In this document: positions 1-35,452 of the stretch, in pieces
Layout of the letters: each line of letters starts with the position of its first letter
Numbering within the stretch: the stretch's first letter is position 1
DNA from: Candidatus Omnitrophota bacterium
Lineage (GTDB): Bacteria > Omnitrophota > Gorgyraeia > S143-82
Direction: 5' to 3'
Assembly (NCBI GenBank): GCA_015494465.1
Contig: WGBD01000001.1
Location: 25,030-89,029 of the forward strand
DNA length: 64,000 bases
Notes under the pieces: model-generated
What the model was told of the DNA's origin: nothing
Seen by the model: the letters and a program-made list of their open reading frames with translations, nothing else
Database searches by the model: none
Made by a program: the position numbers and the translations under genes

Positions 1-546
1 CCCATCCAGATCGGGGACAAATCCCCTCTCCAACTCCGCCAACAATTCATTCACCACCAGTGCCCGGGTATAGGTCCCCAAGGACAACAACCTCTCGTAG
101 AACCGCCTGCGGGCAGAAGGGAAGGCCTCCCACACACGATAAAACAGATCCGAAGGATCGTGGGCGCTAAGTATCCCTTTCACCCCTGACAGGGCCTCGT
201 CGGAGATAGCGGACAGAGAGGTCTGCTCGAATGCCCCGAATATGGACCGCGCCCAAGGGTAAAACCTGTCCCAGTCCGAGAACTCCTCAACAAAACCCTC
301 CCAGACCGCCTTCATCTCCGGCAGGATGTCCTCAATCCCTCCCACATAAACCGGCCGGACGAGGGATAGCAGGTATCTCCAGAAGTCTTTCAGGGAATAG
401 GCGCGAGGAGGAAAAACCACCCCCCGTTTAGCAAGCAATCTATCCATAAAGAAAGAGGGCCTCAAGGAAGGAAAGACCACCGCCCACCTCTGCGCATCAT
501 CTTTATCCAGCAGTATGCGGACCACTTCCTCGTGCAGAGACCTCAT
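1..546 (-). CDS. hypothetical protein, N-terminal part only (gene continues past window start); not in ORF track
   Basis: Hand translation of minus strand from ATG at 546-544 gives MRSLHEEVVRILLDKDDAQRWAVVFPSLRPSFFMDRLLAKRG... open to position 1; its ATG overlaps the TGA stop of the upstream nuclease ORF (ATGA). Confidence 0.4.
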   Translation of the reverse strand, partial: MRSLHEEVVRILLDKDDAQRWAVVFPSLRPSFFMDRLLAKRGVVFPPRAYSLKDFWRYLLSLVRPVYVGGIEDILPEMKAVWEGFVEEFSDWDRFYPWARSIFGAFEQTSLSAISDEALSGVKGILSAHDPSDLFYRVWEAFPSARRRFYERLLSLGTYTRALVVNELLAELERGFVPDLDG

Positions 547-1031
547 ATCACCCTCTCCAGATGACCGGAACCGTCGGAAGAGATGTAAAAGAGATACCCC
601 TTTACATCCTCGCCAATTCCCCGGGAGAGTATCTCCGCGTACCTGCGCACCTGCTCTGCGTGATCCTGTCGGGGAGATGAAACCTTGTAATCCACCACCG
701 CAGACCCGCCCGCACGCCTCAGGAAAAGATCCACCCGGAACCTCTGCCCCCTCTCCCCGAGGATAGGGACCTCGCAAAAGACCTGAGCACCCTCCACAAG
801 ACGCAACAACGCACCAAAGCCCTCCGAGGCCTCCAATGCCCCAAACAAGGACAGCAACCTCTCCCGAAACTCCTCCCTCAAGCCGTAAGGGAGCATATCC
901 CCAACTGCCCTGTCAACCGCGCCGGTGAGATCTCTATCCCCTGAAAAGTAGGCCTCAAGGGCCCGGTGGACCAACTCCCCGAACCGCCTCTCCTCCCAGC
1001 CGACTACCTCCTCATGCCTTATCCTAATCAT
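543..1031 (-). CDS. RecB-family PD-(D/E)XK nuclease domain protein (AddA/RecB C-terminal-like)
   Basis: Motifs GELVHRALE, VDLFL, VVDYKVSSPRQDHAEQVRRY match RecB nuclease motifs (H..E, D, DYK, Q...Y); start overlaps helicase stop by 8 nt in a different frame. Confidence 0.6.
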   Translation of the reverse strand: MIRIRHEEVVGWEERRFGELVHRALEAYFSGDRDLTGAVDRAVGDMLPYGLREEFRERLLSLFGALEASEGFGALLRLVEGAQVFCEVPILGERGQRFRVDLFLRRAGGSAVVDYKVSSPRQDHAEQVRRYAEILSRGIGEDVKGYLFYISSDGSGHLERVI

Positions 1032-3534
1032 TCGCTCTCACCTCACCTCCGTCTTTAACCAACATGGGCCTTATCACCTCCTGCCAGGAGAAGACATAAC
1101 GGGATGGATCGGTGAGGAAGAGGGTCAACTTCCTCTTTGCCCTCGTCAGGGCCACGTACAAAAGATTGACATCGTCCCAGATGCGCAGGTGGGATTCGTT
1201 GCGGTAAAGTTCCCGCAGGGCAGGATGGCGCTTGGCCATGTTGGAATTGACGTAATATACCCGTATGTTCTCTCCCGGATCCCAGAAGAGATTTCCCTGT
1301 AGGCCCGGGCTGCGGTTCTCTCCTATTTTCACATCCAGAAACGGCAGAATCACCTCGTCGAACTCCAATCCCTTTGCGGAGTGAATGGTCATAACCCTCA
1401 CTGCTGAAGAAGCAAACGGAAGTGCCACCCGCTCGGCCTCCACCGGACTGTCCTCCTGATACTCCCAGAAGCGCAGAAATTCCTTCACGAAGGCACCGTT
1501 CCTGCTCTCCCAGTCCCAGAGGAGGTCCAGAAACGCAGATACAAACAGGTCCTGATCCGGGAAATTCTCCCTTATCCTCAACCTATCAATCAAATTCACC
1601 ACCGTGCGATAGATACTGCCCTCCACCGCCGAATCCAATACTTCCCACACCAGTTGACGGAAATAACCGCTCCCCCGCAGGCGTAGTTCCTCCTGCCAGT
1701 AGGAGAGTGGTTTGCCGGTAAAACAGGCCCAGACCTCCGAGATAATAATCCCCTTCAAAAAGAGATCCTCCTCGGGATAGGCAAGACAGCGAAGGAAGGT
1801 AACCAAGGCCATAACCACCGGATGCCCCACCAGAGTCATGGACTCCTCAGAGATGGCCGATATTCCCTCAACCGTCAGGCGGGAAATGACCTTCCTTGCC
1901 TCCTCCCGCCGTCTCACGAGTATCGCCTTCTCCCCCTCCGGACTGTTTTTCAGATAATCCACCAGTTTCTCTATCAACACATCTTCGTAATCCGACCACG
2001 ACAGGGAAGGATCCCCCTGCACCAGCAGAGAATCCACCTGCCCCTCCTCTTCTTTGACCGGCCTCTGCACCACCGCCTCCTCCGAGAAGACCCTATCCAT
2101 ACGCAACAGGACATCCGATTCAGTTTTATCCTCAGACAACCTGTCCACTATCCCGCTGAACAACTCGTTGTTAAAGGCAACAATCCCTTTGGCACTGCGC
2201 CAGTTACGATCCAAAACAAATTCCCGGAAATCAAACGGAAAGGCCTCCCTCAACATACCAAACATATCCGGATGACTCCCCCGCCAGCGGTATATCGTCT
2301 GCTTGGGATCGCCCACGCAAAACAATAAGCCACCGCTGGCAAGGGCCTCCTCAAAGATGGGCCGTAGGGCAGACCACTGGGAGAGACTCGTATCCTGAAA
2401 CTCGTCTATGAGAAAGTGCGTGTACCTTCCGAAGCGGGCAGAGATACGCTCGGCTACCAGATGGGGATCAAGGTTCGCTATGTCCAACTGGATGAGCGGA
2501 AGATAGGTTATGTCCTTCCGGCGACGCAGGTCGTCAAGCCCCCTCTTGAACGCGGAGTAAACGTACATAAAAGGTGCAGGGAAGGATCGACTAAAGGCCT
2601 CATCCAGACGATTAAAGGTCTCCAGAAGACTCAACCACATCTCGTAAAGTTCACGGGCGGGGTCTTCTGCCACCCTGCCCTTGAGCACACCCCTGCGAAA
2701 GGCCTCGTAGTCGGCGTAGGTGAGACTGAAGAATGTCGTCTTCACATCCTTCACCGACGCCAATATAGACTCACTGAGCCCTTCCAATGCCTCCCGAGAC
2801 CTTTTAGTCAGTTTCACCCTCAACGCATCTGCCCGACTCAGGAACGCATCCCTGAGACGCAGGACCTCCCTGATCAGGCCCTTAAGAGAAGTCGGAGTAA
2901 TGGGTTCTAGTTCCCTGCCGAGATGCGACTGCTTCTCCAGATAGACAGGAAACAGCCACTCCGCATAGCCTATCGGATCCCATCCCCGATAGACCGCCAA
3001 AGAGCGCGAAAAGTAGCCCACGAATCTGTAGATAGAGCGCAATAAAGTGCGATCGCTCTTAGCCCTCTCCAAGGCATGCGATACGATGAGGTCCATATCC
3101 GAACGGATGGACGTGCGCATAGCAGAATAAGGCGACAGGCCCAATTCGAAAGAAAAAGACATCCTCAACTGATTCAGAAAACTGTCTATCGTCTGGATGC
3201 GAATCCGTGAATAGTCAAAAACGAGGTCGATCAAAACCCTACCTGCCTCCTCTCGGACCTCATCCTCCGGCAGATCCAACAACTCCGCAAACTCCCCTGC
3301 CCTGTCCCCATACACCACCTCCATAAGGGTATCAATCACCCGCCTGCGCATCTCCTCCGCAGACTTGTTGGTGAAGGTAATAGCCAAAATAGAATCGGGA
3401 CCAATCCCTTTCAGGAGGAGGGAGATGTAAACCGCAGTTAAGGTATAGGTCTTCCCCGCCCCCGCCGAGGCAATAACCGACACCACCCCCGGCGCAGGCT
3501 TAGTACAATGCCGAACTATTTCTTTTAGGACCAT
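1024..3534 (-). CDS. UvrD/PcrA-family superfamily 1 DNA helicase
   Basis: Walker A ASAGAGKTYT, DEFQDTS, motif VI LLYVALTRAKRKL; ORF track gives GTG start at 3660 but ATG at 3534 is preceded by TATAAT and avoids overlap with upstream gene. Confidence 0.75.
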   Translation of the reverse strand: MVLKEIVRHCTKPAPGVVSVIASAGAGKTYTLTAVYISLLLKGIGPDSILAITFTNKSAEEMRRRVIDTLMEVVYGDRAGEFAELLDLPEDEVREEAGRVLIDLVFDYSRIRIQTIDSFLNQLRMSFSFELGLSPYSAMRTSIRSDMDLIVSHALERAKSDRTLLRSIYRFVGYFSRSLAVYRGWDPIGYAEWLFPVYLEKQSHLGRELEPITPTSLKGLIREVLRLRDAFLSRADALRVKLTKRSREALEGLSESILASVKDVKTTFFSLTYADYEAFRRGVLKGRVAEDPARELYEMWLSLLETFNRLDEAFSRSFPAPFMYVYSAFKRGLDDLRRRKDITYLPLIQLDIANLDPHLVAERISARFGRYTHFLIDEFQDTSLSQWSALRPIFEEALASGGLLFCVGDPKQTIYRWRGSHPDMFGMLREAFPFDFREFVLDRNWRSAKGIVAFNNELFSGIVDRLSEDKTESDVLLRMDRVFSEEAVVQRPVKEEEGQVDSLLVQGDPSLSWSDYEDVLIEKLVDYLKNSPEGEKAILVRRREEARKVISRLTVEGISAISEESMTLVGHPVVMALVTFLRCLAYPEEDLFLKGIIISEVWACFTGKPLSYWQEELRLRGSGYFRQLVWEVLDSAVEGSIYRTVVNLIDRLRIRENFPDQDLFVSAFLDLLWDWESRNGAFVKEFLRFWEYQEDSPVEAERVALPFASSAVRVMTIHSAKGLEFDEVILPFLDVKIGENRSPGLQGNLFWDPGENIRVYYVNSNMAKRHPALRELYRNESHLRIWDDVNLLYVALTRAKRKLTLFLTDPSRYVFSWQEVIRPMLVKDGGEVRAND

Positions 3535-3632
3535 AGGGTTATTATACAGCAATGAGATCCTAGCCCAACAACGAAACTGTCCGGGGAAGGAGGTGTAAGG
3601 CCCCGGACAACTTAATATGGCCTTTAGAAGCG

Positions 3633-4148
3633 TTATCGGTGTCTTCTCCTCCCAAACCACACGAAGCCGTTTTCGTCGATGTAATACTTTTGGAAGGCAA
3701 ACATATAAGGATGGTCAAAGGAGACGAAGTGCCATTGGCCACTCTGACTAATCCTTATCACATTTGACATCGTAACGAAGTCCAGTTGCCAACCCTGAGG
3801 GCCTTTTCTCAAGAAGAAAGGGGCATACTTTAGATCCTGTGGGTAATAGATGACCGCATACCTGCCTTTTATGGCAATCTTAAAAGGGACTCCCTCGTAT
3901 ATTCGCATATTATCCTGTTGGGCGTCGGTCACCGTCCAACGCCTGAAGAACTCTTTGGTCTCGTCGGTGTAGATGTCAAGGTCCGGGTCCTTTACGTGGA
4001 GACGACAGGCCTCCAGATAGCGTTTCAGGGTAAACTCTGGCCTGGATTGGGCACGGAAATAACTCTTATCAAATTCTCTGGCCCATAAGGTAAGACCGAT
4101 CCCAAGCACGAGCAGACACAAGATTACAGAGCTACCTCGCTTCATCAT
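3633..4148 (-). CDS. hypothetical secreted/periplasmic protein
   Basis: 171 aa ORF with N-terminal signal-peptide-like segment MMKRGSSVILCLLVLGIGLTLWA; no family recognised. Confidence 0.5.
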   Translation of the reverse strand: MMKRGSSVILCLLVLGIGLTLWAREFDKSYFRAQSRPEFTLKRYLEACRLHVKDPDLDIYTDETKEFFRRWTVTDAQQDNMRIYEGVPFKIAIKGRYAVIYYPQDLKYAPFFLRKGPQGWQLDFVTMSNVIRISQSGQWHFVSFDHPYMFAFQKYYIDENGFVWFGRRRHR

Positions 4149-4306: not shown

Positions 4307-5099
4307 AAGGTATGATATAGGGATGAGGTCGGTAGTGTTAGCGCTCGAGTTGTTTCTGTTGGGTTATCTTGGGGCGGTGGTATCGGCCCTGTTGTATAAG
4401 TATGCCCCGAAATTGCATCCCGATCGGGGGTTGCTTCAGGCAAGCGTATTTGCGATACTCAGCCCGTCTTGTCTTTGCGCAAGTTATCCAGTCCTTCTCA
4501 CTATGAACAATCGCTATCTCAGGGTGTACACCGCCAGTCTCTCTGCTCTACTAAGTCCGTACATATTACTCTTTTCCTGGAGGCTGTTGGGCTGGGAGTT
4601 TGCGGGAGAGAGGGTCATCCTTTCCCTCACTTTATCATCCTTAATCGCCTCTTTTACCTACCGCATGGCCCCTCCGGGGGCACCTGTCAAAGACACCCTA
4701 TCCTCACTTGACGAAAGGCCGGCCCTGATGGCTATCGCAAACTCCATATTCAAACTCTCTTTAAGACCGCTCATCCTGACTATAGCGATTTCTCTCCTCG
4801 TGGCAAAGGTGTTGGATCCAAATCTGGTTGGGAAGTACGCCCTTTTCCCGGGCACGCGGACGATGGCGATAATATTGGCAGGTCTTGGAAAGTTCTGCTA
4901 CGGGCAGGAGACATTCCTCTTATATGCTATCCGCGGTCTGCCCCACAATCCGGGATTCCGACTGGGATTTTCACTGACCGGCAGTGGGATATGCCTTGGA
5001 ATGGTGCCTCTCTATCTCAAGATCTACGGCAGGATGGGAACCGCAATCTTTCTAATTACGACCTTCCTATTCGCCCTATCGCTCAATTGGCTCATTTAA
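4272..5099 (+). CDS. hypothetical polytopic membrane protein (start at GTG 4272 or ATG 4320)
   Basis: 275 aa ORF with several hydrophobic helices; one of only three plus-strand genes; GTG start coincides with repeat copy C. Confidence 0.5.
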   Translation: MRQIPYGRSCLTRYDIGMRSVVLALELFLLGYLGAVVSALLYKYAPKLHPDRGLLQASVFAILSPSCLCASYPVLLTMNNRYLRVYTASLSALLSPYILLFSWRLLGWEFAGERVILSLTLSSLIASFTYRMAPPGAPVKDTLSSLDERPALMAIANSIFKLSLRPLILTIAISLLVAKVLDPNLVGKYALFPGTRTMAIILAGLGKFCYGQETFLLYAIRGLPHNPGFRLGFSLTGSGICLGMVPLYLKIYGRMGTAIFLITTFLFALSLNWLI

Positions 5100-5472
5100 C
5101 GAAGGGTATCCTCATCAGGTGGGCCATAAGTAAGCCAAGGAAGAGATAAAACAGGCCTATCCCCCTTAAGACCGAGACCGGCAGGAGTTGGACCAACGAG
5201 ATTATCTTTTCGTAGGCCCTGCGGGTGGTTTTGAGGAAGAGCAATATCAATCCTACGATGATCACCAGATAGGATATCCAGCGAATGAGGGGCCACTTTA
5301 TTATCCCTGCCGCGGAAAAGAGGGGTGAGATGAGCCCGAAAAAGAAGAATAGCAAGATCCAGCGGACCTTCTTGTATGCCTTTTTGGTGAGTTTGGTGCG
5401 AAAAATTTCAGGCCTGATCAGAATGATCAGGCCCCAGATTATAAGAAACCAGCCTACTATCCTCTCTATCAC
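5092..5472 (-). CDS. hypothetical small membrane protein
   Basis: 126 aa, 3-4 predicted TM segments; start overlaps rplQ stop by 4 nt suggesting co-transcription with alpha operon. Confidence 0.5.
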   Translation of the reverse strand: MIERIVGWFLIIWGLIILIRPEIFRTKLTKKAYKKVRWILLFFFFGLISPLFSAAGIIKWPLIRWISYLVIIVGLILLFLKTTRRAYEKIISLVQLLPVSVLRGIGLFYLFLGLLMAHLMRIPFVK

Positions 5473-15396: not shown

Positions 15397-15641
15397 TTCA
15401 GCACCTCCAACAGCCTCCAGCGCTTCTCCTTAGAAAGGGGACGCGTCTCTATAAACCGCACCCGATCTCCAACCTTGGCAGTTTCTTTCTCGTCGTGGAC
15501 CTTGTACTTCTTCCTGACCTTCACCCTCTTCTTATAGAGCGGATGCTCCACCATTCGCTCGACCATCACGACGATAGTCTTCTGCATCTTATCGCTGACC
15601 ACAACGCCTTCCAATATCCTCTTCCTACTGCGCATAATCAC
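15393..15641 (-). CDS. rpsQ: 30S ribosomal protein S17
   Basis: 82 aa; OB-fold S17; operon position. Confidence 0.95.
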
Positions 15642-15844
15642 TTCTCCTGAGTTCTGGCCAACTCTCTCTCCCGCAAGATGGTTAGAATCCGGGCAATGTC
15701 CTTCTTTATGGCCTTGAACAGATGAGGCTTATCCGCCCCGGTAACCGCATGCTTCATCCTCAACTCGAAGAGTTGCTTCTTAAGGGCCAGGAGTTTATCC
15801 TGCAGCATCTGATCGTCCCACTCTCGCAAATCCCTTGCCTTCAT
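15638..15844 (-). CDS. rpmC: 50S ribosomal protein L29
   Basis: 68 aa helical protein between rplP and rpsQ. Confidence 0.9.
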
Positions 15845-15848
15845 AGTC

Positions 15849-16265
15849 TCACTCCATCGTTCTGGTCACGAACTTGGTCCGAAACGGCAGTTTGTAGGAG
15901 GCGGTCCTTATCGCCTCTCTCGCAAGGTCCTCGGGAACACCTGCTATCTCAAACAGTATCTTGCCCCGATGGACCACTGCAACCCAGCCCTCAGGAGAGC
16001 CCTTCCCCTTACCCATTCGGGTCTCCGCGGGCTTTTTGGTGTAGGACTTATCGGGAAATACCTTTATCCAGACCTTACCGCCCCTCTTAAGTTTCCTGCT
16101 TATGGCAACCCTGGCTGCCTCCAACTGGGTGGCGGTAAGCCAGGCGTTCTCTAAAGCCTTTATGCCGTATTCGCCAAAGGTGAGTTTACTGCCTCTAACC
16201 GCAATCCCCTTGCGGGTCCCTCTTTGGTGCTTTCTGTACTTGACTCTACTGGGCATCAAAGGCAT
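15849..16265 (-). CDS. rplP: 50S ribosomal protein L16
   Basis: 138 aa; [16 protein letters not shown]... typical L16. Confidence 0.95.
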
Positions 16266-16277
16266 AGCGCGTCCTCC

Positions 16278-16952
16278 TCACACGAACATCTCCATCTGCT
16301 CCTTGAAGATCTCCTTCAACGGCTTGCCCTCGCCGTGATAGACCCACACCTTTACACCGATGGTACCATATGTGGTCTGGGCCTCGGAGAGGGCGTAATC
16401 TATATCCGCCTTTAAGGTGGACAAGGGGACCTTACCTGCCCTGTACTTCTCGGTCCGGGCTATCTCTGCCCCGCCAAGCCTTCCACCTATCTCTATCTTT
16501 ATCCCCTGGGCGCCGGCCTGCATTGCCTGCTCTATCGCCCGCTTCACCGCCCGCTTGTAAGGGATGCGCTTCTCTATCTGATAGGCGATGTTGTCTGCGA
16601 TTATCTGGGCATCGGTCTCAGGGACGCTCACCTCTTCGGTGTCTATCCTGACCTCCTGATCGGTCGCTATCTGTTCTATCTCGTTCTTGAGTTTCTCTAT
16701 CTCCGCACCCTTGCGCCCGATTATCACCCCCGGACGGGCAGTGTATATTATTACCCGAAGGTTATTTTCTCCATAGCGCTCTATCTCTACCCGGCTGACC
16801 GCTGCGTGTCTCAGCTTCTTGCGGATGTGATCCCTAATCCTGCGGTCCTCTATAACATACTTGACGAACTTTGGCCCTTTGGCGAACCAGCGAGACCGCC
16901 AGTCCTTTATGTAACCGACACGCAACACGAAAGGATGTACCTTCTGTCCCAT
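16278..16952 (-). CDS. rpsC: 30S ribosomal protein S3
   Basis: 224 aa; MGQKVHPFVLRVGYIKDWRSRWFA... typical S3 (KH domain). Confidence 0.95.
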   Translation of the reverse strand: MGQKVHPFVLRVGYIKDWRSRWFAKGPKFVKYVIEDRRIRDHIRKKLRHAAVSRVEIERYGENNLRVIIYTARPGVIIGRKGAEIEKLKNEIEQIATDQEVRIDTEEVSVPETDAQIIADNIAYQIEKRIPYKRAVKRAIEQAMQAGAQGIKIEIGGRLGGAEIARTEKYRAGKVPLSTLKADIDYALSEAQTTYGTIGVKVWVYHGEGKPLKEIFKEQMEMFV

Positions 16953-35133: not shown

Positions 35134-35207
35134 CAGGCCTGGAGGGATTCGAACCCCCAACCCGCGGTTTTGGAGACCGCCGCTCTGCCAGTTAGAGCTA
35201 CAGGCCT
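35134..35207 (-). tRNA. trnW: tRNA-Trp (anticodon CCA)
   Basis: Minus-strand 74 nt AGGCCTGTAGCTCTAAC...GGTCTCCAAAACCGCGGGTTGGGGGTTCGAATCCCTCCAGGCCTG; 7-bp acceptor stem, TTCGAAT T-loop, anticodon loop CTCCAAA; no encoded CCA tail. Confidence 0.9.
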
Positions 35208-35379: not shown

Positions 35380-35452
35380 AGCCCACGACCGGAATCGAAC
35401 CGGTGACCTCATCCTTACCAAGGATGTGCTCTACCGACTGAGCTACGTGGGC
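35380..35452 (-). tRNA. trnT: tRNA-Thr (anticodon GGT)
   Basis: Minus-strand 73 nt GCCCACGTAGCTCAGTCGGTAGAGCACATCCTTGGTAAGGATGAGGTCACCGGTTCGATTCCGGTCGTGGGCT; acceptor GCCCACG/CGTGGGC, anticodon loop TTGGTAA. Confidence 0.9.

Follow-up and report, generated by a model that had tools for sequence, protein, structure and literature searches.

An AddAB-type helicase-nuclease probably composed of three polypeptides in an Omnitrophota bacterium

Organization of the locus

The stretch of contig WGBD01000001.1 from a Candidatus Omnitrophota bacterium analysed here (64,000 nucleotides (nt), the window) begins with three overlapping genes on the minus strand, which encode a helicase, a small nuclease and a third protein cut by the window edge (Table 1). 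Together they very probably encode an AddAB-type helicase-nuclease for the processing of double-strand-break ends, made of three polypeptides instead of two: an AddA helicase subunit (AddA-H), an AddA nuclease subunit (AddA-N) and AddB.

Table 1 Features of the helicase-nuclease locus in the window
Feature	Position	Strand	Remarks
AddA helicase subunit, 836 amino acids (aa)	1024..3534	minus	superfamily 1A (SF1A) RecB/AddA-type motor; nuclease domain absent
AddA nuclease subunit, 162 aa	543..1031	minus	free-standing RecB-family PD-(D/E)XK; without iron-sulphur (Fe-S) cysteines
AddB N-terminus, 182 codons, cut by window edge	1..546	minus	vestigial helicase-like region, without Walker A
Helicase stop/nuclease start overlap, 8 nt	1024..1031	minus	nuclease in +1 frame; read from sequence
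Shine-Dalgarno (SD)-like purine-rich tract GGAGGTGAGGTGAG 5' of nuclease ATG	1037..1050	minus	from GGAGG/GAGG comparison across relatives
ATGA stop/start overlap, nuclease/AddB	543..546	minus	read from sequence
TATAAT hexamer, 6 nt 5' of helicase ATG	3541..3546	minus	candidate promoter, by inference only

The helicase open reading frame (ORF) starts with ATG at 3534 and stops with TAG at 1026-1024. An in-frame GTG at 3660 offers an alternative start, and the start at 3534 is preferred because orthologues of 832 aa share the same N-terminus. The nuclease ORF extends from ATG at 1031-1029 to TGA at 545-543. The 8-nt overlap between the two has the context AATGATTAG, in which the reading frames differ, and the nuclease frame is closed by a TGA located 6 nt 5' of the nuclease ATG. 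The third ORF starts with ATG at 546-544 and has no stop before position 1. The ATGA shared by nuclease and third gene also occurs in two related loci (L002 and L089, see Table 2), and a third one (L092) has TTGA instead. The overlapping stop and start codons and the SD tracts suggest that translation of the subunits is coupled, which would balance their amounts. This layout is in line with a preliminary description of the DNA, which had reported an out-of-frame overlap of 8 nt with a separate 162-aa RecB-type nuclease (found at 1024-1031, the nuclease being assigned by PRK13909.1-2 and by a fold match to AddA) and an ATGA overlap with a third ORF leaving the window (543-546, open to position 1).

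No SD sequence is present at the helicase ATG. A 16-nt sequence at this site, GTATAATAACCCTATG, is identical in L002 (9985-10003; window 3534-3546) despite different upstream genes. The TATAAT hexamer combined with the missing SD sequence suggests a leaderless operon transcript; a consensus promoter scan did not call TATAAT at 3541..3546 because of the poor -35 element.

The helicase subunit

The helicase matches Pfam UvrD-helicase (7.7e-36) and UvrD_C, and its best NCBIfam matches are PRK13909 ('RecB-like helicase') and recB TIGR00609, all far below cut-off. On the model PRK13909.1-2 (909 positions), the helicase ORF aligns with positions 331-703 and the nuclease ORF with positions 760-902 (E = 1.5e-11), therefore the two together tile one AddA-type protein. 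The curated AddA/RecB cut-offs are not reached, the best score being 239.5 bits against 650 (PRK13909.1-2), and that of addA_Gpos 124.8 against 707.65. Family models for AddA and AddB alike score far below their curated cut-offs, which indicates a divergent lineage.

A helicase profile built from the window ORF and 15 relatives was run against solved structures. It aligns with Escherichia coli RecB (1W36_B) in one stretch (19-806 on 21-809, E = 2e-48) and matches Bacillus subtilis AddA (3U44_A) at E = 8e-48. RecB and AddA both outrank PcrA, AdnB, Rep, UvrD and GajB. Walker A (AGAGKT), DEFQD, GDPKQTIYRWRG, TIHSAKGLEF and LLYVALTRA are invariant in 16 relatives, and motifs I-VI are intact. The helicase was first described as stopping shortly after motif VI; indeed it ends 38 aa past LLYVALTRA of this motif, whereas fused relatives carry 217-291 aa there.

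The nuclease subunit

The nuclease ORF matches Pfam PDDEXK_1 (E = 8e-5) and contains the complete nuclease domain, as seen when concatenated helicase-nuclease pairs are aligned with fused homologues. In this alignment, the two ORFs part within the linker of variable length that connects the helicase with the first nuclease motif, and the segment preceding the motif is kept on the nuclease ORF (MIRIRHEE; the fused counterparts have RLILRKNN and KIARRELG). The motifs G18..H22, E87, D101, (D/E)-Y-K at 114-116 (D114 in the window) and Q127..Y131 are conserved in five orthologues and 22 free-standing homologues. The protein has one cysteine and no CxxC; with a single cysteine it is therefore not a Cas4-type Fe-S nuclease.

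The AlphaFold2 model of the nuclease has a predicted local distance difference test score (pLDDT) of 93.5 and a predicted TM-score (pTM) of 0.87, and is uncertain only over the first ~8 residues. Its top Foldseek match in the PDB is the AddA nuclease domain of B. subtilis (4CEH_A, E = 2.6e-6, TMq 0.58-0.63), followed by MGME1, the Cas4-family ACE1 and AdnA. An exhaustive search with HMMER, using the nuclease profile against 1.84 billion representatives, gave seven clusters at E <= 1e-10, all of them free-standing proteins of 159-172 aa. Among the weaker matches, small proteins are mixed with C-termini of proteins of ~1000-1150 aa (63 of 148). A word-indexed homology search returned the nuclease itself, one relative and nothing else, and the single sequence found no match in the PDB; profiles were needed.

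The third gene

The 182-codon fragment alone has no family match in the model libraries and retrieved nothing in the word-indexed homology search. It is 87% identical at the amino acid level to the N-terminus of a 913-aa orthologue in L002, which matches PF12705 at 616-909 (E = 9e-37); in L002, L089 and L092 this match covers the last ~290 residues, with E-values ranging from 1e-32 to 1e-37. The L002 protein also matches addB_alphas TIGR02786 (6e-24), TIGR03623 and addB_Gpos. Judged by this orthologue, the third ORF is AddB. The ORF does run off the window, as first described, whereas the unknown family then assigned to it gives way to AddB, given the 87%-identical orthologue with PF12705 and four cysteines; the AddB likeness raised at that time as a question is confirmed by homology through L002.

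AddB is 909-939 aa long in the relatives. Its nuclease motifs (GT..H, D..D, DYK and Q..Y) and four cysteines (C628, C899, C902 and C908, all located beyond the window) are invariant in L002, L089 and L092. The cysteines lie in CP.RFYYRY ahead of the nuclease core and in C-x2-C-x5-C at the C-terminus. The window fragment and its orthologues have no Walker A, with VFPSLRPSFF in its place, and profile comparison detects a vestigial SF1 motif V/domain 2A (LQARGLGF vs HASKGLEF of Rep 1UAA, E = 0.0018); the single-sequence PDB search with AddB gave no match. The N-terminal region of AddB appears to be an inactivated SF1 helicase-like module. An AddB lacking Walker A differs from B. subtilis AddB and resembles the alpha-proteobacterial type. 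The combination of an inactivated helicase with an Fe-S-stapled nuclease is a known AddB signature, established for B. subtilis AddB (PMC3321194).

Conservation of the split

The preliminary description had proposed comparing orthologues for fused or split architecture. At least five further lineages likewise have separate helicase and nuclease genes, at helicase identities from 86% down to ~30% (Table 2). The eight helicase clusters nearest to the window protein in a database of 5.8 billion proteins (42-86% identity) have lengths of 832-843 aa throughout. The nearest named organisms sharing the split architecture are Thermodesulfobacteria, whose helicases are ~30% identical (Thermodesulfatator indicus, 824 aa; Thermosulfurimonas marina, 836 aa), and fused AddA-like proteins in the same database have 1000-1130 aa. 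The nuclease start codon is ATG in four of five ORFs and GTG in L089, and GGAGG or GAGG lies 6-9 nt 5' of the nuclease start at four of the five junctions (window, L002, L089 and L092). Between the window and L002, the helicase has a ratio of nonsynonymous to synonymous substitution rates (dN/dS) of 0.12, the AddB fragment one of 0.13 and the nuclease one of 0.23, at dS 0.5-0.7. The helicase and nuclease ORFs are both under purifying selection.

Table 2 Related loci with separate helicase and nuclease genes
Locus	Relation or source	Helicase	Junction	Nuclease	Third gene
L002	86% helicase identity; shared rpoA-rplQ synteny	832 aa, TAA stop	4-nt gap	162 aa	913 aa
L089	48% helicase identity	843 aa	17-nt overlap	159 aa	915 aa
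L093/L094	nuclease ~27% identical; 4 contigs, ENA and JGI samples	820 aa	28-nt overlap	172 aa	909 aa
L092	Thermosulfurimonas marina CP042909.1 (1377456-1383300), finished isolate genome	836 aa	4-nt overlap	173 aa	939 aa
L006/L007	Thermodesulfatator indicus-like	824 aa	11-nt overlap	183 aa	none adjacent

As a control, distant AddA relatives (24-30% identity, mostly Bacteroidota) were surveyed at 80 GTDB loci among the matches listed from a generic helicase-motif scan. Among these listed matches, the nuclease-profile search finds ~72 of the 80 loci with the nuclease domain at the C-terminal end of the helicase ORF, and two, both from metagenome-assembled genomes (MAGs; L052 and L069), with the domain in a separate ORF or other frame. 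The motif VI scan scored 56 of the listed loci, 52 of which have 217-291 aa past the motif.

Three MAG AddA loci have the nuclease out of frame or the tail shortened (L052, 6007-9179; L069, 4740-5393; L022, 5986-8853). These breaks could be independent splits or assembly indels.

Gene arrangements among relatives

Four arrangements were found: helicase-nuclease-AddB, helicase-nuclease, nuclease-AddB, and helicase alone. L006 has the helicase-nuclease pair without a neighbouring addB, and in L003 and L090 the helicase stands alone, followed by metE or unrelated genes. Particularly, in L096 (positions 1-2185) an AddB-like gene lies downstream of the gene for a free-standing nuclease of AddA type (161 aa), and the gene upstream of the nuclease is LOG/TIGR00725-like, not a helicase. 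We infer that this nuclease-AddB pair belongs with the helicase-alone genomes. The varied combinations, as read from gene order, would fit three autonomous subunits. In a neighbour-joining tree, the helicase-only proteins fall into three groups placed among fused lineages, namely the window clade, the T. marina/T. indicus clade and a Thermodesulfobacterium clade (775-789 aa).

L006 also encodes a second, short UvrD-like helicase (503 aa; 15400-16911), located ~2.4 kb downstream of the split AddA pair.

Alternative explanations

A genuine split, a frameshift and a sequencing error had all been considered in the preliminary description, and only the genuine split stands. As far as sequence comparison can tell, the separation of helicase and nuclease is real and neither a sequencing error nor a pseudogene, because it is conserved in distant relatives with differing junctions, and because both genes are under purifying selection and are non-adjacent in some genomes. 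The idea of a sequencing or assembly indel, or of a recent frameshift that pseudogenized a fused addA, draws on the out-of-frame 8-nt overlap, which matches what a single-base indel would give, and on isolated frame breaks in a few distant MAG loci (L052, L069, L022 and P0024). However, the junctions of the other lineages vary and include a gap after TAA as well as a finished isolate genome, every catalytic residue is kept in the nuclease at the dN/dS given above, each nuclease has its own start codon with an SD-like tract at most junctions, and the L096 nuclease lies away from any helicase gene; the probability left for such an artefact is almost nil. Programmed +1 ribosomal frameshifting, which would make a canonical fused AddA, perhaps beside the separate products, is very improbable. 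In its favour, the window, L002 and L006 all have the nuclease shifted by +1 with respect to the helicase frame, and the +1 frame is open for some codons 5' of the ATG in several orthologues. Yet a +1 frame common to three cases has a chance of ~1 in 4, no conserved slippery or stimulatory sequence is found at the junctions, the TGA 6 nt before the nuclease ATG blocks the +1 frame of the window, and the helicase of L002 stops before the nuclease begins. The separate start codons, the SD-like tracts and the unlinked helicase and nuclease genes of some genomes also argue against a frameshift fusion.

AddAB and RecBCD degrade foreign linear DNA, and the trio might accordingly be viewed as a dedicated anti-phage module (helicase, nuclease and accessory protein, Gabija/GajB-like or similar) instead of housekeeping repair. 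The GajB models of PADLOC match the helicase (best 4.5e-33), and Cas4 models weakly match the nuclease. The GajB matches, however, are confined to generic UvrD motifs, whereas the matches to RecB and AddA are stronger and span the full length, and with the helicase profile GajB ranks below RecB, AddA, PcrA and UvrD. In addition, no GajA/OLD-family partner was matched among the window genes, and the third gene is of AddB type. The trio adjoins a ribosomal protein/rpoA operon and smpB, not a defence island, and its genes occur in every relative examined, like a core gene set. A dedicated defence module is thus highly improbable, and the defence role entertained in the preliminary description is given up, the partner being AddB in a housekeeping context with no GajA-like or other defence partner.

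Several observations weigh against a three-polypeptide AddAB. The window holds 182 AddB codons, and the identity of AddB rests on the 87%-identical orthologue. The Logan assembly L001 (SRR10312501) is 100% identical over 2186 nt including the helicase/nuclease junction, and it may have been built from the same reads as the window and is not safely independent. For the helicase-alone genomes L003 and L090, the nuclease-AddB pair is known only from L096, another sample of the same project. The neighbour-joining tree is crude and does not give a single or repeated origin of the split. Finally, low-level +1 frameshifting could yield some fused protein, which is unlikely from the junction sequences.

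Established families were also considered for the trio. Gabija was rejected, the helicase neighbours being a RecB-type nuclease and AddB, with no GajA match. Cas4 was rejected for the nuclease, which has one cysteine and no CxxC, and whose best sequence matches are AddA-like C-termini of ~1000-1150-aa proteins and whose best fold match is AddA. AdnAB was rejected as the partner lacks Walker A and the helicase lacks a fused nuclease. As to RecBCD, no RecC- or RecD-like gene adjoins the helicase in the window or related loci (neighbourhoods only, not the whole genome). A standard AddAB operon with AddB as the partner, which the preliminary description had named as counter-evidence, applies in part: AddB is indeed the partner, whereas the split of AddA sets the operon apart from the standard one.

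Proposed mechanism

The three-polypeptide AddAB proposed here builds on the gene structure, domain identity, intact catalytic motifs, conserved split and purifying selection described above; assembly, strand assignment, Chi response and a role in recombinational repair are taken from homology to B. subtilis AddAB (PMC3321194) and severed E. coli RecB. AddA-H would be the sole active SF1A motor, translocating 3'-5'. AddA-N would be translated separately, from its own SD sequence and the ATG overlapping the helicase stop, and the overlapping stops and starts may couple translation and keep the subunit amounts matched. AddA-N is predicted to dock non-covalently on the AddA-H/AddB body, at the site of the fused domain in canonical AddAB, and to cut the 3'-terminated strand. 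AddB would serve as an inactivated-helicase scaffold and presumed Chi-scanning module, with its Fe-S-stapled nuclease acting on the 5'-terminated strand.

Moreover, AddA-N might be a dissociable and exchangeable subunit, with Chi control of 3'-strand cutting or the hand-over to RecA loading achieved by its release or repositioning, or it might serve more than one helicase. We consider this extension rather unlikely. The unlinked nuclease-AddB pair in L096 and the helicase-nuclease pair without AddB in L006 are compatible with it and do not demonstrate it. If true, the lineage would represent a natural test of the 'nuclease-swing' and 'rearrangement' models of RecB.

Genomic context

The trio is located in a housekeeping context, with the rpoA/rplQ operon upstream and, in L002, smpB downstream. 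Between the rplQ-side genes and the helicase, the window encodes a 171-aa protein (3633-4148, minus strand) that starts with a hydrophobic, signal-like segment and has no Pfam match. This protein is absent from the otherwise syntenic L002, where AAA_14/DUF4143, cupin and other genes occupy the site. A 126-aa multi-pass membrane protein is encoded at the end of the rpoA-rplQ operon, and its gene overlaps the 3' end of rplQ (window 5092-5472, minus strand; L002 4109-4489). The protein is conserved in the window and L002 and has no family match. The sole Rfam matches at gathering level in the window are two tRNA genes on the minus strand (35134-35207 and 35380-35452); no rRNA was matched.

Implications

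In textbook AddAB and RecBCD, the 3'-strand nuclease is tethered on the helicase polypeptide. The importance of this covalent tether is under active debate, and RecB severing studies from 2024-2025 disagree on the nuclease-swing model. The separate nuclease gene kept by evolution provides a natural counterpart of these experiments and indicates that the covalent link is dispensable in nature, since the separation persists at ~30% helicase identity and the genes are sometimes unlinked. Proteins from the cultured thermophiles Thermosulfurimonas marina and Thermodesulfatator indicus offer material for structural and single-molecule work on nuclease positioning and regulation. In the named sources of the protein search, the helicases are annotated as 'UvrD/REP helicase' or 'AAA family ATPase', therefore AddAB would be scored absent from these genomes. 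A natural AddA split was not found described in the full-text literature searched; the phylogenomic survey of Cromie 2009 lies outside that coverage, and a prior mention is possible. The three-subunit AddAB variant is apparently undescribed so far.

Comparison with known systems

The locus resembles AddAB (RexAB; B. subtilis 3U44/4CEH, Bacteroides and epsilonproteobacterial types) in having one active SF1A RecB/AddA motor, an AddA-side RecB-family nuclease that lacks Fe-S, and co-operonic genes. Moreover, the partner of ~910-940 aa combines an inactivated helicase-like N-terminus with a C-terminal PD-(D/E)XK nuclease and four conserved cysteines. In contrast to AddAB, the AddA nuclease here forms a polypeptide of its own, 162 aa long and with a separate start codon, instead of a C-terminal fusion, and the gene order is addA(H)-addA(N)-addB.

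Mycobacterial AdnAB is likewise heterodimeric and composed of UvrD-like modules and RecB-type nucleases, and AdnA and AdnB are among the structural and sequence matches. Both Adn subunits have a fused motor and nuclease with ATPase motifs, whereas the nuclease is detached here. Cas4 and stand-alone RecB-family nucleases share with AddA-N a small free-standing PD-(D/E)XK fold of similar size and weak profile matches; the four-cysteine Fe-S cluster and the CRISPR context are features of Cas4 and not of this nuclease.

The closest parallel to the split comes from engineered RecBCD. The enzyme formed by RecB(1-927)CD and a separate RecB nuclease domain works and responds to Chi both in vitro and in vivo (PMC10954480). 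When the RecB tether is cut at the helicase junction, activity is near wild type, whereas Chi activity is lost if the cut is made where the tether meets the nuclease (PMC13181404). With its pre-nuclease segment kept on the nuclease ORF, the natural split is similar to the tolerated cut. Severed E. coli RecBCD is a laboratory construct of a three-subunit enzyme with RecD as second motor, whereas no RecD is seen near the genes described here, which represent a naturally evolved, conserved split of AddAB type.

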